DNA of 64,000 bases from Candidatus Egerieisoma sp. (GTDB lineage: Bacteria > Bacillota > Clostridia > UBA1212 > UBA1255): positions 12,608 through 76,607 of the forward strand of contig JBGVNN010000024.1 of NCBI GenBank assembly GCA_045125595.1, given 5' to 3'. A model generated the notes under the pieces. It saw nothing but the letters and a program-made list of their open reading frames with translations, was not told where the DNA came from and searched no databases. Both the position numbers and the translations under genes were made by a program. Of this stretch, positions 8,593 to 19,882 are shown in pieces (the stretch's first letter is position 1; each line of letters starts with the position of its first letter).

Positions 8593-10125
8593 ATGATTAT
8601 TAATAAAATCACAGAAATAAATGATATTGTTAACTCTTTTATATGGGGACCATGGGGACTTGTTCTTCTTATTGTCACGGGTATTTTAATGACCTGTTGT
8701 ACTAAGGTTTTCCAAATAACTCACATAAGACATTGGTTTAAGGAAACAATAGGAAGTCTTTTTAAGAAAAACAGTAGTTCCACTAAAAAAACAGACAAAA
8801 AATCCATATCACAATTCCAGGCGCTTTGTACTGCACTTGCGGCGACTGTTGGTACAGGCAACATTGCTGGTGTTGCTGCCGCAATAGTTGTGGGTGGTCC
8901 TGGTGCTGTTTTTTGGATGTGGGTAGCAGCGTTTTTTGGCATGATGACAAACTATTCTGAGAATGTACTCGGAATATACTACCGCCGACGCAACAGTAGC
9001 GGAGAGTGGTCAGGCGGCGCCATGTATTATCTGAAAGACGGACTTGGAAGAAAAAAAGGATTTAAAACAATATCATCAATTCTTGCGATACTTTTTGCCT
9101 GTTTTACTATCTTTGCTTCTTTTGGTATCGGTAATATGGGACAAGTTAATAAAATCACCCTTAATATTCAATCTTCATTTTTCTCCAATGTGGATTTAGG
9201 AACAGTGGGTGGTATTTCCGTTTTGGGTTTAATAATCGGAGGAGTTTTGGTTATACTTGGAGGACTTATTATTCTCGGAGGATTACAAAGAATAGCATCC
9301 TTTGCTGAAAAAGTTGTTCCTTTTATGGCAGGGGCATATATTCTTGGAGCTTTGGCTATTATGTTTATTAACATTGGAAATGTTGGCTCAATGTTTGGAG
9401 CAATATTTAAATTTGCTTTTACTGAAAGGGCGGCTTTCGGCGGTGTTCTCGGTACTGTTATTAAAGCAATGACACAGGGTTTTAAAAGAGGCGTTTTTTC
9501 TAACGAGGCAGGTCTTGGTTCTTCGGTTATAGTACACAGTTCATCTAATGTAAGAGAACCTGTGCGTCAAGGAATGTGGGGAATTTTTGAGGTTTTCTTT
9601 GATACATTTATTGTATGTACAATGACAGCAATAGTTGTACTTTCATCCGGATATATTGATTTGAAGACAGGAAATCCGACAGTTGCCAATTTAGATGATT
9701 CTACATTGGTTTCAAGAACTTTCGGAGATATTTTTGGTGCACCGGGGCAATGGTTTGTTGCAATTGCGTTGTTACTTTTCGCTTTTACAACAGTTCTTGG
9801 ATGGTCGCAATATGGTTCAAAGGCAGTAGAGTATTTGTTTGGAACAAAAGCTGTTAAAGTATATAAAGTTGTTTTTGTACTTATGATTGTATCGGGAGCA
9901 ATAATGACTTCTTCTTTGGCATGGGATATTTCAGATACATTTAATGGATTTATGATGGTACCTAACCTTATTGCTGTTGTATCTCTTTGTCCGTTAGTTA
10001 TTAAAATAACAAAGAATTATATAAACAGAAAAATAAAGAAAAAAGACGAAACTCCTATGTTCTCATATGATGAAGAGCTTCAAAAAGAGGCTCAAGCGGC
10101 AGAGGCGGCAGAGCAAGAGGCATAA
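8593..10125 (+). CDS. Alanine/glycine:cation symporter (AGCS family) permease.
   Basis: RBS GAAGGAG. The motif TALAATVGTGNIAGVAAAIVVGGPGAVFWMW and the multi-TM topology are typical of AGCS transporters. Confidence 0.75.
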   Translation: MIINKITEINDIVNSFIWGPWGLVLLIVTGILMTCCTKVFQITHIRHWFKETIGSLFKKNSSSTKKTDKKSISQFQALCTALAATVGTGNIAGVAAAIVVGGPGAVFWMWVAAFFGMMTNYSENVLGIYYRRRNSSGEWSGGAMYYLKDGLGRKKGFKTISSILAILFACFTIFASFGIGNMGQVNKITLNIQSSFFSNVDLGTVGGISVLGLIIGGVLVILGGLIILGGLQRIASFAEKVVPFMAGAYILGALAIMFINIGNVGSMFGAIFKFAFTERAAFGGVLGTVIKAMTQGFKRGVFSNEAGLGSSVIVHSSSNVREPVRQGMWGIFEVFFDTFIVCTMTAIVVLSSGYIDLKTGNPTVANLDDSTLVSRTFGDIFGAPGQWFVAIALLLFAFTTVLGWSQYGSKAVEYLFGTKAVKVYKVVFVLMIVSGAIMTSSLAWDISDTFNGFMMVPNLIAVVSLCPLVIKITKNYINRKIKKKDETPMFSYDEELQKEAQAAEAAEQEA

Positions 10126-10128
10126 TTA

Positions 10129-10158
10129 TTGACATATTAAAATATGAAATGTTATAAT
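10129..10158 (+). promoter_or_regulatory. Near-consensus sigma-A promoter for trpS.
   Basis: TTGACA, an 18-nt spacer, then TATAAT, ~45 nt upstream of the trpS ATG. Confidence 0.55.
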
Positions 10159-10203
10159 TTTTGCTGTGTTTAAATAAAAATATTATTCAGCAGGTGAATT
10201 TTT

Positions 10204-11193
10204 ATGGATAGACTCTTAACAGGACTCCAACCGAGCGGTTGCCTTACAATAGGTAACTACAGCGGAGGTATAAAACAAGTAATAAATTATCAGGACAATT
10301 ATGAGACATTTTTGTTCGTGCCTGATATGCATGCCACAACGGTAACACAAGATCCCGATGAATTGAGAAAAAACATTAAAAGCGCAGTAGGTCTTTACTT
10401 GGCTTGCGGTGTAGATGTAAACAAACCTAATATGCATTTATATATTCAATCAGAGAATCTTTACCATGCAAATCTTTCGTGGATACTTGAGTGCCATTCT
10501 TATTACGGAGAAATGGCGAGAATGCATCAATTTAAAGAAAAGTCAAAGCTCCATGAGAATTTTACTTGTGGCCTTGTAACTTATCCTGTACTTATGGCAG
10601 CAGATATTTTGCTTTATGATGCGAAATATGTACCTACAGGCATCGATCAAAAACAACACGTTGAGCTTGCTCGTAATCTTGCAATACGTTTTAATAACAG
10701 ATATAAGGATGAGTTTTTTGTTATACCTGAGCCGCTTATGCCGACTGTAGGTGCTAAAATTCGCGATTTGCAAGAACCTACGAAAAAAATGAGCAAATCC
10801 ACAACAAACCCTAAGTCAGCAATTTTCCTTTTGGATACAGAGAAAGATATACGCAAAAAAATCATGAGTGCGCAGACTGACAGTGAAGCAAGAATTGCTT
10901 TCGATGAAGAAAACAAACCGGGAGTTTCAAACCTTCTTTCTATATACTCGGTTTTCAGCGGACTTTCTATTGAAGAATTAGTAGCTAAGTTTAGCGGTGG
11001 CGGATATGGTGACCTTAAAAAAGCTCTTGCTGAGGTTCTTGTAGAGAAACTTACAGGCATTCAGGATAACTATAATAAAATTATGCAATCAGGTATTATT
11101 GACGATGCTCTTGATGCGGGTCGCGATTATACAAATGCCATTGCTAAAGAAAAATATGAGAGAGTTCGTAAGGCTGTAGGTTACGGACGTTAA
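10204..11193 (+). CDS. trpS: Tryptophan--tRNA ligase.
   Basis: The N-terminal TGLQPSG..TIGNY motif (HIGH-type region) and the KMSKS motif are present. RBS AGGTGA. 329 aa. Confidence 0.9.
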   Translation: MDRLLTGLQPSGCLTIGNYSGGIKQVINYQDNYETFLFVPDMHATTVTQDPDELRKNIKSAVGLYLACGVDVNKPNMHLYIQSENLYHANLSWILECHSYYGEMARMHQFKEKSKLHENFTCGLVTYPVLMAADILLYDAKYVPTGIDQKQHVELARNLAIRFNNRYKDEFFVIPEPLMPTVGAKIRDLQEPTKKMSKSTTNPKSAIFLLDTEKDIRKKIMSAQTDSEARIAFDEENKPGVSNLLSIYSVFSGLSIEELVAKFSGGGYGDLKKALAEVLVEKLTGIQDNYNKIMQSGIIDDALDAGRDYTNAIAKEKYERVRKAVGYGR

Positions 11194-11292
11194 TCAAAGA
11201 TTAAATTTAAGATGAATTATTATTGCGGTGTATGGTCCTGCGTATGTGTTTGAAACATGTACGTGTGACGAATGCACCGCATAATTTTTTAC

Positions 11293-11322
11293 TTGATACA
11301 AAGAGTCGGCATGTGGTACAAT
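11293..11322 (+). promoter_or_regulatory. Sigma-A-type promoter for the lipoprotein/kinase/PqqD/NTase cassette.
   Basis: TTGATA, an 18-nt spacer, then TACAAT. Confidence 0.4.
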
Positions 11323-11370
11323 TATAGAGAATATATTATTTTTCAAAATAAAAGGAATGATTTTATTATT

Positions 11371-11877
11371 ATGAAAAAGGCTTATTTATCTGTAATTTTA
11401 ATTTTTACTTTAATACTTATGTGTTTATGTCTGGCTTCTTGCGGAGAGGTTGAGGGAATAGAAATAACACGTGATGTTACACCTACAGCAAGAACACAAC
11501 CTGTATCTACGCCAACACCAACAACTGTTATTACTCCTACTGAGTATTTAGGTGATGAAAATGAAGTAGCTACATTTGATATTCAAGAAGACCCGACTAC
11601 AGCTCCTGCTACGGGAGGAAGCACAAATCAAACCAGTCAAACTACAGCAGGAACTACAATAAATCCCACAAATGGACAACAAACATCAAATCCTACTTCC
11701 GTACCGACAACGACTCCGACTCAGACTAACGGAGCCACATCATCGGCTACAGCGAATGTTACGAACACTCCTACAGCACCGACAACAGAGAATCCAACAA
11801 CAAGTCCTACAAGCACTCCTGCACAAACACCTTCAAAGAAGACTCCGATTCGTCTTCCTATTATTTGGTTTGACTGA
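11371..11877 (+). CDS. Lipoprotein with a long Thr/Pro/Ser/Asn-rich low-complexity region and a hydrophobic C-terminal tail (PIRLPIIWFD).
   Basis: RBS AAAGGAATGA. The N-terminus MKKAYLSVILIFTLILMCLCLASCGE carries a lipobox (LASC). The stop overlaps the next start (ATGA). Confidence 0.7.
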   Translation: MKKAYLSVILIFTLILMCLCLASCGEVEGIEITRDVTPTARTQPVSTPTPTTVITPTEYLGDENEVATFDIQEDPTTAPATGGSTNQTSQTTAGTTINPTNGQQTSNPTSVPTTTPTQTNGATSSATANVTNTPTAPTTENPTTSPTSTPAQTPSKKTPIRLPIIWFD

Positions 11878-12608
11878 TGAGCAGTATTTTTTGTAAGACA
11901 TACAAGTTTGCTCAAATTTCTGTTTTGGCTAAATATAATTATAAATATCTTGATAGTCAATGCAGGGACTACTTGACGGATGAAGAACCAAAAATAGAAA
12001 TTGAGGTTACACAAGAAGATATTGAAAAAGAAAAAGTTACAATATCTAAAGAAGAAGGTACTTTTTCGGATGGTTATTTAGAATCATTGGCTTTTTATCG
12101 TAAATTATGTGCAAGACTTGCTATCGAAGATATTATTCTTTTTCATGGCGCTGCGGTTGAAGTAAATGGTAAAGCATATTTGTTTACTGCGCCGTCAGGG
12201 ACGGGAAAGACTACTCATATATCTTTATGGGGTAAGATTCTCAAGGATAAGATGACAATAATTAACGGAGACAAACCTCTTTTAAAAGTGTCAGATAAAA
12301 TTATTGTTTACGGTACACCGTGGGACGGCAAAGAAAAACAGAGTACAAATACTTTTGCTGAATTGGGAGGTATTTGTATAATTAAAAGAGGAATAGAAAA
12401 TAAAATCAAACAAATTACAGCAAACGAAGCGTTGGGGACATTAATGTCACAGACTTATAGGCCTGTTCAAAAAGAAAATATGAAAAAAGTTCTTGAAAAT
12501 GTATTGTTGCTTTCTTCAAAAGTACCTCTGTGGCAGTTGGAATGCAACATTTCCGAAGAGGCGGCTTGGACATCGTATAACGCAATGTGTAAGGAGGAGT
12601 TTATTTGA
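11877..12608 (+). CDS. HprK-related P-loop kinase (HPr kinase C-terminal-domain-like).
   Basis: Walker A LFTAPSGTGKTTHISLWG, in the context HGAAVEVNGKAYLF. The start is coupled to the upstream stop (ATGA) and the stop to the downstream TTG start (TTGA). Confidence 0.6.
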   Translation: MSSIFCKTYKFAQISVLAKYNYKYLDSQCRDYLTDEEPKIEIEVTQEDIEKEKVTISKEEGTFSDGYLESLAFYRKLCARLAIEDIILFHGAAVEVNGKAYLFTAPSGTGKTTHISLWGKILKDKMTIINGDKPLLKVSDKIIVYGTPWDGKEKQSTNTFAELGGICIIKRGIENKIKQITANEALGTLMSQTYRPVQKENMKKVLENVLLLSSKVPLWQLECNISEEAAWTSYNAMCKEEFI

Positions 12609-12859
12609 AACTTAAAGATGTAATTATCAGTGAAGCTAATGGAGAATATGTAGCAGTAAATATGGGTGGCTCGTTTAACGGCATGATAAAACTTAATGAA
12701 ACTGCTGCTTTTATTGCTGAAGCAATGCAAGAAGATACAACTGTTGAAGAAATTGCAAAAAAGCTTTGTGCTGAGTACGAAATCGATGAGGCTACTGCTG
12801 TGCAAAGTATTGAGGCGGTAGTAGAAAAACTTCGCGAAATAGGATTTATTGAGGAATGA
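12605..12859 (+). CDS. PqqD-family protein (RiPP precursor recognition element-like), 84 aa.
   Basis: Sequence VAVNMGGSF..IKLNETAAFIAEAMQEDTTVEEIAKKLCAEYEIDEATAVQSIEAVVEKLREIGFIEE resembles the PqqD/RRE family. RBS AAGGAGGAG precedes the TTG start. Confidence 0.65.
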   Translation: MKLKDVIISEANGEYVAVNMGGSFNGMIKLNETAAFIAEAMQEDTTVEEIAKKLCAEYEIDEATAVQSIEAVVEKLREIGFIEE

Positions 12860-14406
12860 GAGAAGCTGTATCAATAAAACAAGCACTTGAAAAAAACGGT
12901 TTTGTAATTCATAAAATTAAGGGTGGCAGTATGCTTCCTTTGCTTGATGAAGAAACTGATTTGGTCAGGCTTGAGGCTGTTGCTTGTAAAGACAAATTGA
13001 AAAAATATGATGTGCCGCTTTTTGTGAATGAAAGTAATGGCATGTTGATTCTCCATAGAATTATTGATGTTAAAAAGAATCATTACATCACATATGGGGA
13101 TAATTGCAAGCATTATGAAATTGTGCCTTTTGATACAGTTTTAGCTGTTGCTACAGGTTTTTATATAAAAGGAAAGTTTGTTTCCTGTAACGATCCGGAG
13201 TATTTGAAATATGTAGAAGAAAGATGTTCTTCTATAAAAAAACGCAAACTTTACCCGTTAAAAAGAAAACTTGCACCGGAGACAAAGGTGTTAGTTAAAT
13301 TATTCGTTGAAGCAGTCAAAAATGACGGCGTATCAATGAATGTTGAAAATGAGATTTCCGCACAATTCAATTGGCAAAAATTATTTGCGGAGGCAAAACG
13401 CCACAATATTGGGGCGATGCTGTATCCTTATGCCAAAAAAGCCGGCTGTCCGGAGCCTTTAATATCTGCGTGGAGTCAAATCGCTGATAAAGCATTGAGA
13501 AAAGAGCTTTTGTTTAATGCAGAAAGAAGCGCAATTATAAGTGAATTTGAAAAAGCCGGCATAAAATACATACCGCTTAAAGGAATAATAATTAAAGATT
13601 ATTATCCGAGAAAAGGTATGAGAGAATTTACGGATAACGATATGCTGTTAGAGGAAAAGTCGATCCCTGCAGCTACTCAAATAATGGAAAAAAGAGGATA
13701 CAGAAGTAATATAAATGAAGATTACACTGATTGTCCTTTTTATAAAGAGCCTATATTTAATTTCGAGTTGCACAGAGCGCTTTTTGCAAAAAATGTGCCG
13801 ATTGCCAAGTATTTCAAAGACCCGTGGAAAAAGGCTGTAAAAGATAACGATAGTAATTTTGGTTATCATATGACAAATGAGGATTTTTATATCCACGTTA
13901 TTACACACTTTTATAAACATTATGCAATCAGCAGAGGTGCGGGACTGAAATTTTTTGCTGATTTCCATTATTTACAAATAGGTTTGATTGACAGCCAAAA
14001 AGTTGATATAAATTATATAAAAAGAGAGTTTTCGAAATTAGGCATATTAGAATTTTATGAAAAAACTGTTGAAATGACAGAACGTCTGTTTAAAGGAGAC
14101 GAGACACTATTTACAAACGAAATGCTTCACTATGTTCTCTCGAGCGGAGCTTACGGCAATAAATCACAGGCAATTGCCAATAATATTAAAAACAATGGTA
14201 AATTTAAGTTTTGGTTTTCAAGACTTTTCCCAACGAAGGGATATATGGTAAAGGTTTTTCCTGTAATAAGAAAAGCCCCCGTGCTGTTGCCCTTTTTATG
14301 GATTGTGCGCCTCGTAAGAGCGCCGTTTACTAAATCGGGACGTGAAACATTTACACGGGAGCATAATATCTCAAAACATATTGATATATCTTCTGATAAA
14401 GATTAA
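12856..14406 (+). CDS. Fusion protein: N-terminal S24/S26-type (SipW/Sec11-like) peptidase domain plus a C-terminal uncharacterised polymerase-beta-superfamily nucleotidyltransferase (NTP_transf_5-like).
   Basis: KGGSMLPLL and LILHRII form the peptidase signature, with His in place of the SPase-I Lys. IPLKGIIIKDYYPRKGMREFTDNDMLL fits the hG..x(n)..DxD NTase motif. The start is coupled to the PqqD stop (ATGA). Confidence 0.6.
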   Translation: MREAVSIKQALEKNGFVIHKIKGGSMLPLLDEETDLVRLEAVACKDKLKKYDVPLFVNESNGMLILHRIIDVKKNHYITYGDNCKHYEIVPFDTVLAVATGFYIKGKFVSCNDPEYLKYVEERCSSIKKRKLYPLKRKLAPETKVLVKLFVEAVKNDGVSMNVENEISAQFNWQKLFAEAKRHNIGAMLYPYAKKAGCPEPLISAWSQIADKALRKELLFNAERSAIISEFEKAGIKYIPLKGIIIKDYYPRKGMREFTDNDMLLEEKSIPAATQIMEKRGYRSNINEDYTDCPFYKEPIFNFELHRALFAKNVPIAKYFKDPWKKAVKDNDSNFGYHMTNEDFYIHVITHFYKHYAISRGAGLKFFADFHYLQIGLIDSQKVDINYIKREFSKLGILEFYEKTVEMTERLFKGDETLFTNEMLHYVLSSGAYGNKSQAIANNIKNNGKFKFWFSRLFPTKGYMVKVFPVIRKAPVLLPFLWIVRLVRAPFTKSGRETFTREHNISKHIDISSDKD

Positions 14407-14407
14407 T

Positions 14408-15283
14408 TTAATCTACAAAAGCGATGCCGTCTTCGGTCTCCTCGATACGGAAAAGTCTGGGTCTCTCAAACGGTCTGCCGTTAGGTTGATGAAGTATAAG
14501 ATAAAGTTGATCATCGAAACCGCGGAAAATCATACCGTGACCGCCATCTTTCTTATGCATTGGGTCTTCTTGTTGTTTCCAAGGACCTTTAAGAGTACCA
14601 CTTTCGCTTACAGCATATGTTTGTACATATCCGAGTTTTGCAATAAAGCTTGACCAAAGCATTATCAACTTGCCGTTTTGTAAACGATGAAAGAATGGTC
14701 CGTCAGTAACATAGTGGCCATCTTCATCAGGGTTAAGAGAAAATACCCATTTTGCATCACTTGCAGGGAAAAGAAGCTCCGGTTCTCCTATTGTTTCACT
14801 TAAATCGTCGGAAAGACGTGTTGCACACATTGTGCCGTCTGCAATCTGTGTCCATTCGTGACAGAAAACAATCCAAGGTTTGTTTTCTTCGTCAACAAAC
14901 ATAGTACCGTCGAGACAAGACCATTCCGAAGGTGTTTGCGGGCCTTCACTGATAAGCTTGAAAGGACCCATGGGGCTGTCTGCACGCAAAATTTGTGAGG
15001 CACGATTGTGTGTTAAGCTACGGAAACTTGCGAACATATAATACGCACCTTTCCATTTGTGAACTTCCGGTGCAAAAAAGTCTCTGTCTGCCCAAAAACC
15101 TTCAGGGGTTGTAAAACATTCGTGGGGTTCGCTCCACTCAACAAGATCCTTACTGAGATATACATCAAGGCCTTCTCCCTGACGCGGTCCCAAAGGATGA
15201 TTCGCTCTCGTACCATACAAATAATATGTACCATCCTCGGCAAAAACAAAAGGATCTCTTATATGAATTTCATTTAATTTCAT
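14408..15283 (-). CDS. Glycoside hydrolase family 43 (beta-xylosidase/arabinofuranosidase-like).
   Basis: N-terminal IRDPFVFAEDGTYYLYGT. RBS AAGGAGAG. Convergent with the upstream gene, stops 1 nt apart. Confidence 0.7.
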   Translation of the reverse strand: MKLNEIHIRDPFVFAEDGTYYLYGTRANHPLGPRQGEGLDVYLSKDLVEWSEPHECFTTPEGFWADRDFFAPEVHKWKGAYYMFASFRSLTHNRASQILRADSPMGPFKLISEGPQTPSEWSCLDGTMFVDEENKPWIVFCHEWTQIADGTMCATRLSDDLSETIGEPELLFPASDAKWVFSLNPDEDGHYVTDGPFFHRLQNGKLIMLWSSFIAKLGYVQTYAVSESGTLKGPWKQQEDPMHKKDGGHGMIFRGFDDQLYLILHQPNGRPFERPRLFRIEETEDGIAFVD

Positions 15284-15442
15284 TTGAAATACTCTCCTTA
15301 TTTATGATATTGTAAATTTACACCATTACAATAGTGGAGTCAAGCAAAAAAATTTTATAACATTGCGATAAAAAACATTTTTGAAACATTAATAGATTGA
15401 AAGAAGGTAAACCGATGGCTTGGATTTTTACGATGAAAGAAG

Positions 15443-15478
15443 TACCAAAAAGGGCTGTAAAAAAACAGCCCTTTTTGT
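15443..15478 (-). terminator. Bidirectional hairpin terminator downstream of the M23 peptidase gene.
   Basis: AGGGCTGT-aaaaaaa-ACAGCCCT, flanked by A-runs and T-runs. Confidence 0.6.
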
Positions 15479-15511
15479 TTGTTATTTAGTTCACTGAGTT
15501 TTTTGCAAAAA

Positions 15512-16219
15512 TTATTTCCAATATTGAGAGGGGTCTAAAGGCTCGTTATTTTCCGTAAGTTCAAAGTGAAGATGTGCACCCTGTGCCTTTTCGCAGAAAA
15601 TATCGTCACCCAAAGTACCTATCACAGCACCTGCTTCAACTTTGTTGCCCGCAAGTAACCCGTCTGCCGTTTTGGCAAGTCCGCAATAAACAGTTGAGAA
15701 TCGTCTGCCGCTGACATCGTGCTCCATTACGACAGTGAGTCCGTATCTCGGGTCTGACTTTACTGCGGAAATTTTTCCGGTCGCCGCTGCTTTCACGGGA
15801 TTTCCGGAAGTACCTGCAATGTCAATGCCGGAATGTGTTCGCCATTCTTGTAAAGTGGAGTTGTATACAAGTTTTTTTGCAGCAAATTCAGATTGAATTT
15901 CGCCATCAACAGGCTTAATAATTGATATTTGACCCGGTTTTTGCTGATTTGAGCTTGGAGGATTATTGTTTTGAGAATCATCCACAGGTCTTGACGCGGA
16001 GGTGGATTGCGGTGGCTTAGTGTTGTCTGTTTTGTCGGGCGAATTTGTGGGAGAGACAGGTTTTGAAACCGATGTAGAATAAGAAATTACAGGTTCTTTA
16101 GGAGAATTGTTTCCCGTGTTTATTACGGAAATGCCTGCGACAATAACAGCTACAAGACAAACAAAAGCGATAATAATATACCCTTTGTTTTTTAAAAACT
16201 TAACAACAGTATCTTTCAT
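15512..16219 (-). CDS. Membrane-anchored M23-family metallopeptidase.
   Basis: HSGIDIA..., GLTVVMEHDV and HLHFEL motifs. An N-terminal TM segment and a Pro/Ser-rich linker are present. Confidence 0.75.
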   Translation of the reverse strand: MKDTVVKFLKNKGYIIIAFVCLVAVIVAGISVINTGNNSPKEPVISYSTSVSKPVSPTNSPDKTDNTKPPQSTSASRPVDDSQNNNPPSSNQQKPGQISIIKPVDGEIQSEFAAKKLVYNSTLQEWRTHSGIDIAGTSGNPVKAAATGKISAVKSDPRYGLTVVMEHDVSGRRFSTVYCGLAKTADGLLAGNKVEAGAVIGTLGDDIFCEKAQGAHLHFELTENNEPLDPSQYWK

Positions 16220-16390
16220 GTATAAAGCTTCCTTTCAAAAGTAAATTGATTTGTGAATATTATTGCCGGGAAATCAAAAGAATATACATTTTTTCCTTGC
16301 AATAATTTCGCTAAAAAGGTATCATATATCTGTATGCGTGTATGTTTGCGCAGCGATAAGAACAATCACAAGCAAGGAGGCCTTGTAATT

Positions 16391-17410
16391 ATGCAAAATA
16401 AATTAGAATCAATTAAGAAGGAGTTTGACGAGAGACTTTTAACTGTCACGGCACAGGACAAGCTCGAAGAGCTTAAAGTTGCGTACTTAGGCAAAAAAGG
16501 AGAACTTACTTCAATATTAAAAGGTATGGGACAACTCAGTCCCGAAGAGCGCCCCGTAGTAGGCCAGTTGGTAAATGCGGTAAGAGCTGATATGGAGCAA
16601 AAGATTTCCGAAAAGACAGAACAGCTTAAATCAGAAGCTATCGCAAAGAAGCTTGCTGAAGAGAAAGTGGACGTTACAATGCCGGGTAAAACAAAGAAGT
16701 CAGGCTCACTTCATCCTATAAATCAAATCAGCGACGAAATGAAAGACCTCTTTATCGGTATGGGTTATGAAATTGCCGACGGTCCCGAGGTTGAATTTGA
16801 TTATTATAACTTTGAGGCACTTAACTTGCCCGAAGGCCACCCTGCAAGAGACACACAAGATACATTCTATATTACAGAGAAGATGCTTTTGAGAACACAA
16901 ACTTCATCTGTACAGATTCGTGTAATGGAGAACAAAAAGCCTCCTATAAAAATTATTTGTCCCGGTAAAGTTTACAGAGCAGATAATGTTGACGCTACGC
17001 ACTCTCCGATTTTCCACCAGATAGAAGGACTTGTTGTGGATAAAGGCGTTACAATGGGAGATCTTAAAGGTACATTGGAAATTTATGCAAAGCATATGTT
17101 TGGACCCGAGACAAAAATTCGTCTTCGCCCGCACCACTTCCCGTTCACAGAACCCAGCGCAGAGGTTGACGTATCCTGCTGGACTTGCGGCGGTAAGGGT
17201 TGCAGAATGTGTAAAGGCGAAGGCTGGATAGAGGTACTCGGTTGCGGAATGGTGCACCCTGATGTTTTGCGCCGCTGCGGAATAGACCCCGAAGTATACA
17301 GTGGTTTTGCATTCGGAATCGGTGTCGAGAGAACAGCTATGGCACGCTTTGGCGTGACAGATATGCGCCAATTCTTTGAAGGCGACACACGTTTCTTGTC
17401 ACAGTTCTGA
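16391..17410 (+). CDS. pheS: Phenylalanine--tRNA ligase alpha subunit.
   Basis: RBS AAGGAGG precedes ATG 16391. Class II motifs are present ([24 protein letters not shown]). Confidence 0.9.
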
Positions 17411-17431
17411 TGTAAGAAAGGAGATATTAAA

Positions 17432-19882
17432 ATGATAGCACCGTTAAAATGGCTTTTAAGCTATACAGACTTAAATATAAATTCAAATGAAGAAATACAT
17501 GAGCTCGCAGATGAAATGACTCTTTCAGGTACTAAAGTAGAAGAAGTTGTTTCAAAAGGCGCAGATATCAGCCGTGTTGTTGTAGCAAAATGCTTGCAGG
17601 TAGAAAGACATGAAAATTCAGACCATTTGTTTGTTTGCCAGCTCGATATCGGAGCAGGAGAGCCTATACAAATCGTTACAGGCGCACAAAACATGAGAGT
17701 GGGCGCATACGTTCCGGCGGCACTTGACAATTCTACAATTTCAGAAGGCCGTACAATAAAAGCAGGCAAGTTAAGAGGCGTTCCGTCAAACGGTATGATG
17801 TGCTCATTCGAGGAAATCGGACTTGATTGCAATGATTATGAGAACGGAAATAATGACGGCATTATGATTTTGCAAGATTTAGGCGAGTTTAAGGATTGCA
17901 CAGAGGAGTACTTTGAGAGCATTATCGGTAAGGATATTATTCCTGTATTGGGAGCCGACGAGACAGTTATAGACTTTGAAGTAACATCTAACAGAGCAGA
18001 TTGTTTCAGCATTTTGGGACTTTCAAGAGAAGCTGCAATCACAATGCACGGCAAATTTACAAAGCCTGATGTTAAAGTTAAAGAAGAATGTGACGAGAAA
18101 GCTGCTGATTTGATTACAGTAGAAGTTCAGGCACCGGACCTTTGTCCTCGTTATGCGGCAAGAGTTGTTAAAGATGTTAAGATAGGACCTTCTCCTAAGT
18201 GGATGAAAGAGCGTTTGCAAGCAGCGGGCGTGCGTTCTATCAATAATATTGTTGATATAACAAACTATGTTATGCTTGAATACGGACAACCTATGCACGC
18301 ATTTGATAAGCGTACAATAAGAGGAAATAAAATTATCGTTCGCAGAGCTGAAGACGGCGAAAAGATTACGACTCTTGATGAGCAAGAGCGCAATCTTGAC
18401 AGTACAATGCTTGTTATCGCTGACGCTGAGGGCAGCACAGCAATTGCAGGTGTAATGGGTGGTCTTAATTCTGAAATTGAGTCCGATACAACAGAAATCG
18501 TATTTGAATCTGCGATTTTTGATGCGGTTACAGTTCGTAGAGGTGCTAAAAAAGTTGGCTTGAGAACAGAATCTTCTTCTCGTTTTGAAAAAGGTCTTGA
18601 TACTGTTCTTTGCCTTGAGGCGCTTGACAGAGCAGCACAGCTTGTTGAAGAGCTCGGCGCAGGTAAAGTTTGCAAGGGCGTTATTGATGTAAGCACAGGC
18701 GAAAAAGTAATGCCCAAAATCAAATGCAGCGTTGAAGGTATAAACACATTTATCGGTATTTCCGCAACACAAGCTGAAATGGAGAAAATTCTCACAGAGC
18801 TTGAGTGTGAGCCTCATTTCGATGAGGGATATGTTATCCCTCCCAGCTTCAGAGGCGACTTGCTTTGCGATGCCGATATAGCAGAAGAAATCGCAAGATT
18901 CTACGGATATAACAAGATTGAGTCTCGTTTGCTTAACGGATGTGCTACAACATTGGGTAGCAGAAATCGCAAGCAAAAGATTCAGGACCGTATGAGAAAA
19001 CAAATGACAGGAATGGGTTACAACGAGATGCTTACTTTCTCATTTATCAGCCCTTCTGTTTTCAATAAACTTAATCTTCCCGAGGATTGCAAGCTCCGTG
19101 ATGCTGTAGTTATCGAGAATCCTTTGGGAGAGGATTACAGTGTTATGAGAACAACAATGATGCCTTCTTTCTTGGAGTCAATAGCAAACAACCATGCTCA
19201 CAGAGTAGAAAGTGCCTCGTTGTTTGAAATTTCATATGTATATATTAAAACAGATAAATATCCCGATGAGCTTCCCGAACACAGAGAGATGATTACTTTC
19301 GGCGGATATGAAGCAGGCGGTAAAGCTGACTTCTTTGAGTTCAAGGGAGATGTTGAGGCTCTTCTTGAGACTCTTAAAATTACAAAATATGAATTCGAGC
19401 CTGAGAAAGAAATTACTTTCATGCATCCCGGCCGTACAGCAAGACTTTTTGTGGGCGGTAAAGATGCAGGTATATTTGGTCAGATTCATCCTGTTGTTGC
19501 CAAAAAGTGGGGATGTCCCGAAAACACAATGGTTGCAATGCTCAGAACAGACGTTCTTATTGCTAACGTTACAGATATTCCTAAGAATAAAGAGCTTCCC
19601 AAGTTCCCTGCAGTAACTCGTGATATAGCTGTTGTGCTTGATGCGGAAATTCCCGCAGGTCATGTAGAGAAACTTATTCGTCAACGTGGCGGTAAGGCTT
19701 TGGAAAAATGCACTTTGTTTGATTGCTACATCGGTTCACAAGTACCTGAGGGTAAAAAGAGCTTGGCATATGCATTGGCTTTCCGTGATGCAACAAAGAC
19801 ACTTACAGACGAAGATGTAAGCAAGTTTATGAAGAAGATTCTTAACGGACTTGAAATGCAATTTGGGGCAAGCCTCAGATAA
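17432..19882 (+). CDS. pheT: Phenylalanine--tRNA ligase beta subunit.
   Basis: 816 aa. N-terminal tRNA-binding, B3/B4 and B5 domains and a C-terminal FDX-ACB-like domain. Immediately follows pheS. Confidence 0.9.
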   Translation: MIAPLKWLLSYTDLNINSNEEIHELADEMTLSGTKVEEVVSKGADISRVVVAKCLQVERHENSDHLFVCQLDIGAGEPIQIVTGAQNMRVGAYVPAALDNSTISEGRTIKAGKLRGVPSNGMMCSFEEIGLDCNDYENGNNDGIMILQDLGEFKDCTEEYFESIIGKDIIPVLGADETVIDFEVTSNRADCFSILGLSREAAITMHGKFTKPDVKVKEECDEKAADLITVEVQAPDLCPRYAARVVKDVKIGPSPKWMKERLQAAGVRSINNIVDITNYVMLEYGQPMHAFDKRTIRGNKIIVRRAEDGEKITTLDEQERNLDSTMLVIADAEGSTAIAGVMGGLNSEIESDTTEIVFESAIFDAVTVRRGAKKVGLRTESSSRFEKGLDTVLCLEALDRAAQLVEELGAGKVCKGVIDVSTGEKVMPKIKCSVEGINTFIGISATQAEMEKILTELECEPHFDEGYVIPPSFRGDLLCDADIAEEIARFYGYNKIESRLLNGCATTLGSRNRKQKIQDRMRKQMTGMGYNEMLTFSFISPSVFNKLNLPEDCKLRDAVVIENPLGEDYSVMRTTMMPSFLESIANNHAHRVESASLFEISYVYIKTDKYPDELPEHREMITFGGYEAGGKADFFEFKGDVEALLETLKITKYEFEPEKEITFMHPGRTARLFVGGKDAGIFGQIHPVVAKKWGCPENTMVAMLRTDVLIANVTDIPKNKELPKFPAVTRDIAVVLDAEIPAGHVEKLIRQRGGKALEKCTLFDCYIGSQVPEGKKSLAYALAFRDATKTLTDEDVSKFMKKILNGLEMQFGASLR

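Follow-up and report, generated by a model that had tools for sequence, protein, structure and literature searches.

An LPP-related kinase, RRE, and peptidase–nucleotidyltransferase cassette coupled to a tailed lipoprotein gene in Candidatus Egerieisoma sp.

The linear polyphosphorylated peptide (LPP) clusters of Bacilli were defined by Popov et al. (Nat Commun 2026; PMC13381572), with lppA-K-B-S-D-N of Paenibacillus alginolyticus DSM5050, in which the activities of LppK, LppB, and LppS were demonstrated. In these clusters, the precursor LppA has the consensus YxxPxVLxHQxIxFETxxS, LppK is an HprK-like kinase placing up to four phosphates on core Ser3, LppB is a discrete recognition element (RRE) of the type used for peptides made by the ribosome and modified after translation (RiPPs), LppD is an MsbA-like pump, and LppN is an NTP_transf_5 enzyme. 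LppS is an archaeal-type SpI or SipW-like leader peptidase with catalytic S29, H68, and D93, which requires LppB and cuts after T-1 (PMC13381572). Among lasso peptides, PsmN of the pseudomycoidin system puts a hexose on phosphoserine, and fusions of the B2 protease with a nucleotidyltransferase (NTase) occur in lasso clusters (PMC8498205). Here, a cassette of four genes related to both systems was analyzed in a 64-kb stretch of DNA from Candidatus Egerieisoma sp.; the stretch is called the window, and all positions are those of the whole stretch.

The cassette consists of four same-strand open reading frames (ORFs) at 11371–14406 on the forward strand, all of which are intact and translationally coupled. 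ORF1 (11371–11877, 168 aa) encodes a lipoprotein, the proposed carrier and substrate of the system; ORF2 (11877–12608, 243 aa) encodes an HprK-fold P-loop kinase-like protein homologous to LppK and of the ScmC family (PF27840); ORF3 (12605–12859, 84 aa, TTG start) encodes a PqqD-type RRE homologous to LppB and to lasso B1 proteins; and ORF4 (12856–14406, 516 aa) encodes a peptidase–NTase fusion. A first-pass annotation of this DNA had described the same four ORFs, products, and domains, and these were recovered when ORF positions and motifs were read from the sequence and when the domain calls were compared with profiles and a structure model. Its description of the junctions was exact for ORF2/ORF3 (TTGA, 12605–12608) and ORF3/ORF4 (ATGA, 12856–12859), but not for the first one, which is TGATG rather than ATGA, with the TGA stop at 11875–11877 and the ATG start at 11877–11879 overlapping by 1 nt. 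The TTG start of ORF3 is preceded by a strong Shine–Dalgarno sequence, AAGGAGG.

Enzyme modules and the LPP family

The domain table of the LPP study lists the models PqqD, NTP_transf_5, TIGR02228, and TIGR04249 (PMC13381572), and these were also the top Pfam and NCBIfam matches of the window proteins. For direct comparison, the LppS, LppB, and LppA sequences were taken from Supplementary Data 1 and those of LppK and LppN from Supplementary Fig. 23 of that study. Hidden Markov models (HMMs) of the window clade scored LppS at 48.6 bits and LppK at 56 bits, the latter compared with 30 and 27 bits for the lasso kinases BsfK and PbaK, while the NTase HMM gave 26.7 bits for LppN and 38 bits for PbaN. 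The catalytic S29, H68, and D93 of LppS aligned with S25, H67, and E88 of ORF4. The few Clostridial SpI proteins in that study had been assigned to clusters 4 and 9 of the authors' sequence similarity network and were not classed as LPP (PMC13381572); the peptidase HMM of the window clade scored these proteins higher, at 70–81 bits. The enzyme modules of the window are therefore homologous to those of LPP clusters. An anchor-less SpI-like peptidase, a discrete PqqD-type RRE beside it, an HprK-like kinase, and an NTP_transf_5 domain are all present, and the LppD exporter and a precursor with an N-terminal leader were not found in the window. The first-pass annotation had rightly pointed to the phosphorylated lasso peptides of Firmicutes (paeninodin type), but its view that known RiPP classes do not predict the product no longer holds, because this enzyme set defines the LPP family (PMC13381572).

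The kinase-like protein carries the Walker A motif APSGTGKTT at residues 105–113 (12189–12215, forward strand), in which A105, P106, S107, G108, T109, G110, K111, and T113, together with the following H114, were invariant in 33 homologues, as were several other motifs. The Pfam search of this protein gave no match, and its best NCBIfam matches, TIGR04249 (ScmC) and TIGR04352 (HprK-related kinase A), lay around the P-loop and were sub-threshold. Homologues in a metagenome database numbered 2496; the best 120 of the 2496 all carried PF27840 (ScmC), and the few among these 120 that were named by their source were called hypothetical. The first-pass annotation had also mentioned a conserved trio of HprK-related kinase, PqqD, and NTase. 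Membership in the HPr-rel-A or SynChlorMet systems was rejected on scores far below the curated cutoffs. TIGR04352 reached 15.6 against a cutoff of 200 and TIGR04353 30.4 against 35 for HPr-rel-A, and TIGR04249 reached 18.3 against 125 and TIGR04248 13.6 against 100 for SynChlorMet (ScmA-F), with no radical S-adenosylmethionine (SAM) gene among the four ORFs of the operon. Literature searches on SynChlorMet, NTP_transf_5, and PF14907 returned phosphonate biosynthesis only, and a search on ScmC returned unrelated acronyms.

The RRE was identified with a score of 68.3 bits against PF05402 (PqqD; cutoff 23.4), and its profile matched the PDB entries of TbiB1 (2e-10), TfuB1 (2e-8), LppB (9x8z, 9e-5), and PbaB1 (1e-4). 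When 60-odd RREs were aligned, the residue at the position of LppB N33, which fixes the Pro kink, was invariant. The position of LppB D70, which hydrogen-bonds the hydroxyl of the leader Tyr, was Asp in most loci with a Tyr motif and Ser in the whole window clade. In one related locus (L012), this position was Asn and the leaders had Phe.

The fusion protein combines an anchor-less SipW/Sec11-type (archaeal-type SpI) peptidase domain homologous to LppS (12865–13191) with an NTP_transf_5 domain of the LppN/PsmN type (13363–14352), both on the forward strand. The peptidase motifs are GGSMLP (residues 23–28), LHRII (66–70), and GDN (81–83), and those of the NTase are LKG (241–243) and DND (260–262). 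As the catalytic Ser is residue 25, there is no N-terminal membrane anchor. NTP_transf_5 (PF14907) matched residues 170–412 with 141.9 bits; for residues 5–104, the best NCBIfam matches were NF046067 (SipW; 24.5 against a cutoff of 190) and TIGR02228 (33.1 against 51.85). In 29 full-length homologues, G23, S25, M26, P28, H67, R68, G81, D82, N83, and E88 of the peptidase part and K242, R256, D260, D262, E304, H306, H351, and H355 of the NTase part were invariant, and the catalytic residues are thus conserved. The database homologues (n = 166) included approximately 30 full-length fusions of 487–550 aa, the rest being NTases of approximately 375 aa without the peptidase domain. Structure predictions were needed because sequence-only PDB searches of the kinase and the fusion protein gave weak matches only. 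The model of the fusion protein (pLDDT 87.5) matched signal-peptidase/LexA folds, namely SipA (10.6), E. coli signal peptidase I (8.9), and SEC11A (7.3, 24% identity), and its second domain matched the pol-beta-type NTases ANT(2'') (10.1), MenT1 (10.0), and LnuA (8.5). The predicted folds agree with homology to the LPP enzymes. In a partial protein of 670 aa (P0031) from a metagenome-assembled genome (MAG) of a Clostridia bacterium, the C-terminal half of an ScmC-like kinase (PSGGGKST...) runs into a peptidase–NTase with no PqqD between them, possibly a three-module K-S-N fusion.

Related loci and the C-terminal tail of the lipoprotein

To place the cassette in a wider context, 92 related loci (numbered with the prefix L) were fetched, 80 of which came from a one-genome-per-species scan with an 11-sequence alignment; these 80 were all from Clostridia or Bacilli and comprised gut and rumen MAGs and isolates. 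The trio of kinase, PqqD, and fused peptidase–NTase recurred in unrelated genomic contexts, and the neighborhood comparison proposed in the first-pass annotation showed that the trio, in many contexts with a coupled or adjacent tail-bearing signal-peptide protein, is co-conserved across related genomes. Three layouts were distinguished with HMMs built from the window clade. Layout A, that of the window, has kinase, PqqD, and fused peptidase–NTase. Layout B, the commonest, has kinase, PqqD, a separate peptidase of ~148 aa, an ATP-binding cassette (ABC) exporter of ~570 aa, and an NTase of ~380 aa. Layout C, found in Ruminococcus, has PqqD and the fused peptidase–NTase without an adjacent kinase. 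Among 594 neighbor proteins of the 92 loci and the window, the recurrent families were kinase, NTase/peptidase, and ABC exporter only. A lasso cluster was considered and rejected: no cyclase family recurred among these proteins, and the window contains no ORF with an SGGxDS PP-loop, in line with the first-pass annotation, which had seen no lasso cyclase. Likewise, no B2 family recurred among the neighbors of the related loci; PF13471 was not searched across the window.

The ORF1 product was assigned as a lipoprotein from a basic n-region, a hydrophobic h-region, and a lipobox [LVI][ASTVI][GAS]C within ~35 residues. Its signal peptide MKKAYLSVILIFTLILMCLCLASC (11371–11442, forward strand) has a basic MKK, an 18-residue hydrophobic stretch, and the lipobox L-A-S-C ending in Cys24; accordingly, the protein is a predicted Lgt/Lsp substrate. 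The mature part of ~135 residues is disordered and Thr/Pro/Ser-rich (84% T/S/P/E/A/Q/N/G/D/K), its C-terminal end reads ...SKKTPIRLPIIWFD, and the Pfam search of the lipoprotein gave no match. At the extreme C-terminus lies the tail PIRLPIIWFD (11845–11874, forward strand), with the motif phi-x-L-P-phi-phi; the tail-bearing stretch KKTPIRLPIIWFD spans I160 and P163. Among the window, L008, and L088, whose fused enzymes are 61–73% identical to that of the window, the lipoproteins are 31–35% identical, with M1, K2, K3, C24, I160, L162, P163, and W166 invariant, the conserved parts being the signal peptide and the tail only.

A lipoprotein gene directly 5' of the kinase gene (overlapping or separated by at most ~25 nt) was found in the window, L001, L002, L004, L008, L088, and L090, with the tails IRLPIIWFD, IELPRLPLK, EIILPRI, EIVFPKI, IVLPPVWIDR, IDLPVDWWN, and EILLPRI, respectively. 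The linkers of these seven proteins, which are 56 to 189 aa long overall, are disordered and very variable in length, and the shortest proteins (56–59 aa, L002 and L090) consist of a signal peptide, ~30 disordered residues, and the tail. In layouts B and C, tail-bearing lipoproteins flank the clusters on the 5' or 3' side and end in IELPFVPAF, IKLPFVPAV, EYELPFIPN, or KYELPFIPD. When the motif [YFIVLW]x[LF]Px[IVLFMD] within the last 12 residues was scored over the 92 related loci, 32 of 370 signal-peptide-like ORFs carried it, or 31 after removal of one false match, compared with 1.1 expected by chance from internal windows; this is a ~29-fold enrichment. Tail proteins are thus genomically associated with the enzymes. 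The Thr-rich lipoprotein, which the first-pass annotation had named as the candidate substrate, gained comparative support, as coupled or adjacent signal-peptide proteins with the conserved tail recur in many contexts.

A lipobox was present in 19 of the tail-bearing proteins of the related loci, and other carriers were small signal-peptide proteins with a dockerin domain. The latter proteins, of 113–139 aa, combine a signal peptide, a type I dockerin, and a YELPFIP or IELPRLPLK tail (L001:6022-6402, L029:4617-5003, L021:2739-3080, and L056:5346-5765); the dockerin was above the Pfam cutoff in L029, was present in the precomputed annotation of L001, and was sub-threshold in L021 and L056. This suggests that the tag is also displayed through cohesin–dockerin scaffolds. 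In L082 (5893–7526) and L056 (5346–6975), a tail-bearing lipoprotein or dockerin protein adjoins a stand-alone NTP_transf_5 gene, and the 13-kb locus contains no RRE; here the tail could be read by the NTase instead of an RRE. In L023 (1135–5945; Lachnospira sp. UBA3212), two large secreted proteins of 680 aa (LamG, Flg_new) and 903 aa (GH43, GH43_C, Flg_new) are encoded between a kinase–PqqD pair and the fused peptidase–NTase. The two proteins share a different C-terminus, ...TTVTGTTRVLTPSEGF and ...TTVTGTARVLTIAEAL, and the system may also handle full-size enzymes with another type of tail.

The tail agrees with the consensus for RRE binding, [Y/W]xxPx[LVIFA] (PMC13381572), except that the window clade has Ile in place of the first Tyr. 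The exchange of D70 for Ser in the RRE of the same clade is suggestive. In the Ruminococcus loci, the fit of the tail is perfect (Y-E-L-P-F-I), while the short-peptide leaders there (YERL) have no Pro. The tails are also similar to the core sequences of short peptides from the same locus, as in L050 (core GELPFVPAE, tail IELPFVPAF), L030 (core NELPTVPIQ, tail IELPFVPAE), and L012 (core NIVLPPDEF, tail EIDLPWDEF), a likeness that goes beyond the phi-x-L-P consensus. Because the carriers are minimal anchoring devices, consisting of a lipid anchor and linker or of a dockerin, the tail may also be a displayed payload. The two roles are not mutually exclusive, and the computation does not separate them. 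Tyr of the tail as an acceptor of nucleotidylation was ruled out, as the window clade has Ile there.

Short LppA-like ORFs were found in ~45 of the related loci with a regular expression and then with an HMM built from 19 sister-locus precursors (E down to 4e-16). They read MKE.YE.PEMEIVEFETEDIITTS followed by 8–30 variable residues, the core. As YxxP, phi-x-F-E-T, and T-[AT]-S-G are common to these ORFs and Bacilli LppA (for example, MKKVYEAPQVLAHQMIQFETTASG), they were identified as homologues of LppA that carry an insertion of four residues. A short precursor hidden in the window was rejected, since the best match of the leader HMM in the 64 kb was 6.3 bits, in line with the first-pass annotation, which had seen no obvious short precursor ORF. 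The presence of an exporter followed the type of product. An ABC exporter was present in 33 sister loci. It was present in 18 of the 24 unfused loci with short peptides and absent from all seven loci with only tail proteins; with the cluster ABC exporter as the BLASTP query, a homologue was found neither in the 64-kb window nor in these seven lipoprotein-only loci. L091, the sole fused locus with a downstream short peptide, has an ABC exporter. This pattern fits Sec export of carrier proteins and ABC export of free peptides. In L029 (3899–4603) and eight other Ruminococcus-type loci without the exporter, the fused peptidase–NTase gene is followed on its 3' side by one for a conserved membrane protein of 234 aa without a Pfam match, which could serve as an alternative component for export or immunity.

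Inside the lipoprotein, residues 58–78 (EYLGDENEVATFDIQEDPTTA, 11542–11604, forward strand) resemble an LppA-type leader and cleavage region (...EMEIVEFET/EDIITTS, with the slash marking the cut). In a Smith–Waterman comparison with the 19 leaders against shuffled sequences, this segment gave p of about 0.01, KYIAPEMEIVEFEAEDVITTS being an alignable leader, and the counterpart in the L008 lipoprotein, ETPTIDFGPVQTFDIPT, gave p < 0.005. The element V-x-T-F-D-I is retained in the window, L008, and L088 (EVTFDI in L088), and F-D-I of the window would be the counterpart of F(-3)-E(-2)-T(-1) at the cleavage junction. The segment may be a relic of a peptidase site or a working one in this clade only. 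An internal LppA-like leader as a general feature of all lipoproteins was rejected, as the HMM was negative and the shuffle test was significant only for the window and L008 and marginally for L004.

Proposed function and competing explanations

On balance, we lean toward the cassette being an LPP-type, RiPP-like system rewired to take a lipoprotein exported by Sec, and not a short peptide with a leader, as its substrate. The pre-lipoprotein would be produced in excess, its gene being the first of the operon and translationally coupled, and the PqqD-type RRE would dock in the cytoplasm on the tail I-R-L-P-I-I-W-F-D, a Tyr-less version of [Y/W]xxPx-phi. The HprK-fold kinase would then phosphorylate, and possibly polyphosphorylate, a Ser or Thr residue, either close to the tail or within the Thr-rich linker. 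Unlike with the lasso kinases, a C-terminal Ser is excluded as the acceptor, the last residue of the tails being D, N, K, I, F, V, or R. The NTP_transf_5 domain would add a further group to the phosphate, most likely a sugar, and the SpI-like domain would trim the substrate, a candidate site being the internal ...V-A-T-F-D-I/Q, which may mimic the F-E-T leader junction. The product would leave through Sec, which would explain why no ABC exporter is present, and would be lipid-anchored at the lipobox Cys, so that the tail and its modification might be displayed on a long, flexible, mucin-like tether. The lipoprotein as the substrate, the binding of its tail by the RRE, the acceptor residue, the chemistry of the NTase, the cut site, and modification before export are what we infer from the comparisons above.

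Several observations weigh against this proposal. The canonical RRE-guided cut lies ~13 residues C-terminal of YxxP, and the tail is the very end of the protein, which leaves the peptidase no site in its known register; a cytoplasmic cut at F-D-I/Q would, in turn, separate the Thr-rich part from the export signal. The resemblance of the internal segment to a leader is suggestive only, the similarity being marginal, and the leader HMM detected no leader in the lipoproteins. The tail itself has no conserved nucleophile, and the fused loci L006 and L013 show no tail protein nearby. As for the exchange of D70 for Ser, it concerns essentially one clade and about one evolutionary event, and the RREs of L015, L017, and L019 have Gly at this position yet their leaders have Tyr. 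LppN showed no detectable activity in a heterologous host (PMC13381572). The modification of this lipoprotein, or of any related one, is deduced from sequence comparison, and Sec export of a phosphorylated or glycosylated chain is not an established process.

The enzymes could also be of the LPP type while serving a short LppA-like precursor elsewhere in the genome, the lipoprotein being an accessory such as a surface-tethered mimic, decoy, receptor, or immunity factor with the same epitope. The RRE systems characterized so far do use N-terminal leaders, ~45 related loci carry short leader peptides, and L006 and L013 hold the fused trio without a tail protein. Moreover, L028, L050, L030, and L012 hold both short peptides and tail proteins sharing ELPFVP or LP.DEF, which a ligand-and-mimic pair would fit. 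However, no leader-type ORF was found in the 64 kb, and the lipoprotein-only loci have no exporter, so that a short product would have no dedicated exit. In addition, the lipoprotein and kinase genes are tightly coupled in seven loci, in the usual position of a precursor gene, and the RRE of the clade has lost the Tyr-binding Asp. We therefore regard an accessory role for the lipoprotein as rather unlikely. Similar reserve applies to the possibility that the lipoprotein is the substrate but that its tail and the upstream Ser/Thr form the modified and displayed core module, similar to the core TAS-G-ELPFVPAE, with recognition by another element, for example the internal EYLGDENEVATFDI, or by the kinase or NTase itself. 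The covariation of tails with the short-peptide cores of the same locus beyond phi-x-L-P-x-phi (VPAE/VPAF and DEF) speaks for such a core, as do the minimal carriers (lipobox and linker, or signal peptide and dockerin), which suggest that the tail is the payload. Also on this side are the tail proteins of L056 and L082 beside stand-alone NTP_transf_5 genes with no PqqD nearby and the marginal significance of the internal leader-like segments in the window and L008. Recognition by another element is difficult to reconcile with the 56–59-aa lipoproteins of L002 and L090, which have no room for one, with the negative leader HMM, and with the Ruminococcus tails (Y-E-L-P-F-I), which fit the RRE consensus very well while the short-peptide leaders there lack Pro; it is accordingly considered improbable.

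It is far less credible that the cassette is a decaying, functionless remnant of a lasso or LPP cluster beside an unrelated lipoprotein gene. Cyclase, exporter, and canonical precursor are indeed all missing, but the ORFs are all intact and translationally coupled, and the catalytic and nucleotide-binding residues are invariant in 29–33 homologues at overall identities of 30–80%. The four-gene arrangement is also kept both in relatives with enzymes 61–73% identical and in unrelated contexts, and the tail is ~29-fold enriched.

Beyond the rewired LPP-type system preferred above, a broader and more tentative proposal covers all related loci. In gut and rumen Clostridia, the RiPP machinery of RRE, HprK-like kinase, SpI-like peptidase, and NTP_transf_5 enzyme might have been repurposed as a protein-tagging system. 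The C-terminal tag [Y/I]-x-L-P-phi-phi-P would then act as a follower-type RRE signal directing cytoplasmic phosphorylation or phosphoglycosylation of Sec-exported carriers, namely mucin-like lipoproteins, small dockerin modules, and the large glycoside hydrolases of L023. The modified epitope would be shown on the membrane or on cellulosome-like scaffolds or freed as a peptide. If this tagging proposal is true, it would be the first case of RRE-guided modification of exported lipoproteins and would offer a natural substrate for the orphan LppN/NTP_transf_5 enzymes.

Because the LPP class is now known, the finding is not categorically new. The cassette is nevertheless a distinct variant, in which the S–N enzyme is fused, an exporter is missing, and the carrier is a lipoprotein tagged at its C-terminus; this variant is not discussed in the LPP study (PMC13381572). 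In gut and rumen Clostridia, LPP-type machinery is spread far more widely than in the Bacilli examined so far, and it is repeatedly wired to exported carriers with a conserved C-terminal tag and not solely to small peptides, which suggests that exported surface proteins are among the targets of RRE-guided chemistry. Modification of the lipoprotein, if it occurs, would bring surface proteins into the scope of RRE-guided RiPP chemistry, would make available a simple operon of three enzymes and one substrate in which the chemistry of LppN could be seen, and would point to a new kind of decorated, tethered surface epitope in abundant gut anaerobes.

Genomic setting and comparison with known systems

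The operon is flanked on its 5' side by trpS, which ends at 11193, and on its 3' side by a convergent GH43 gene on the minus strand (14408–15283). The stop codons of ORF4 and the GH43 gene (14404–14410) are one base apart, with no terminator-like structure between them. Synteny with the window (cysK, symporter, trpS, ..., lipoprotein, trio, GH43) is seen in L088, where the fused protein is 61% identical. The single promoter named in the first-pass annotation, TTGATA-18-TACAAT, is present at 11293–11322 on the forward strand with an extended -10 TG; it matches at 10 of 12 positions and is the best match of this strand upstream of the operon. Matches of this type, however, were no commoner in this AT-rich stretch than in shuffled sequences (11 compared with 12.5 ± 3.0), and the site is a plausible operon promoter, judged by its sequence. 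An Rfam scan of 9500–17500 gave no match, so no riboswitch or leader RNA was found there. An attenuator or terminator hairpin in the 3' end of the lipoprotein gene (11838–11857) was rejected, as its fold z-score was -0.9 and it was not conserved in L008, L088, L001, and L004.

Further neighbors were observed in single related loci. A class I SAM methyltransferase gene (238 aa) lies directly 3' of the fusion gene in L002 (9501–10217) and L090 (7499–8215), where its product may act as an additional tailoring enzyme; no such gene follows in the window. In L063 (6977–10316), a 375-aa protein with a CxxxCxxC-type motif, which looks like a radical SAM enzyme, is accompanied by a 459-aa ScmC-like and PqqD-like protein, another PqqD, a peptidase encoded separately, and a pair of NTP_transf_5 genes, an arrangement closer to that of SynChlorMet. 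Stand-alone genes for NTP_transf_5 proteins of ~380 aa, lacking PqqD, peptidase, and kinase genes in their vicinity, were seen in L043, L059, L062, L071–L073, L076, and L079 (at ~5800–7200). These look like capsule or exopolysaccharide loci; a Bac_transf sugar transferase was confirmed by Pfam in L059 as the representative, and the other neighbors were dehydrogenase-, flippase-, glycosyltransferase-, and epimerase-like by N-terminal sequence only. Such a context hints at sugar-phosphate chemistry for the family and echoes the remark that LPP clusters lie in polysaccharide loci (PMC13381572).

Compared with SipW of Bacillus subtilis, the peptidase domain of the window has the same fold and the boxes GxSMxP, HR-phi-phi, and GDN, but it scores below the SipW cutoff, has no membrane anchor, is predicted to be cytoplasmic, and is fused to an NTase. 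The serine-rich-repeat adhesins of the GspB/Fap1 type are glycosylated in the cytoplasm by the operon-encoded GtfA/B and exported by the accessory SecA2/Y2. By analogy, the lipoprotein resembles them as a long, Ser/Thr-rich, disordered protein with a putative surface location; the window differs in that its enzymes are unrelated and that it has an RRE, a kinase, and a peptidase.

With the lasso systems of paeninodin (PadeK) and pseudomycoidin (PsmK and PsmN), the cassette shares an HprK-like kinase, which acts on a precursor Ser in those systems, an NTP_transf_5 enzyme, and a PqqD-type protein, the lasso B1 being the reader of a leader with [Y/W]xxP. Fusions of NTase and leader peptidase occur in both, as B2–NTase in some lasso clusters and as SpI–NTase in the window, whose leader peptidase differs in being of the serine SpI type. 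The likeness to the LPP clusters lies in the four enzyme modules, the lack of a macrolactam cyclase, the gene order kinase–RRE–peptidase, and the homologous precursors of the sister loci in Clostridia. Unlike Bacilli LppS and LppN, which are separate, the peptidase and NTase of the window form one polypeptide. The first gene of the window encodes a lipoprotein with a disordered linker of ~135 aa and a C-terminal phi-x-L-P-phi-phi tail, the RRE has Ser in place of D70, and the acid at the position of LppS D93 is Glu88. Finally, the host of the window belongs to a gut or rumen lineage of Clostridia, whereas the LPP set is from Bacilli.

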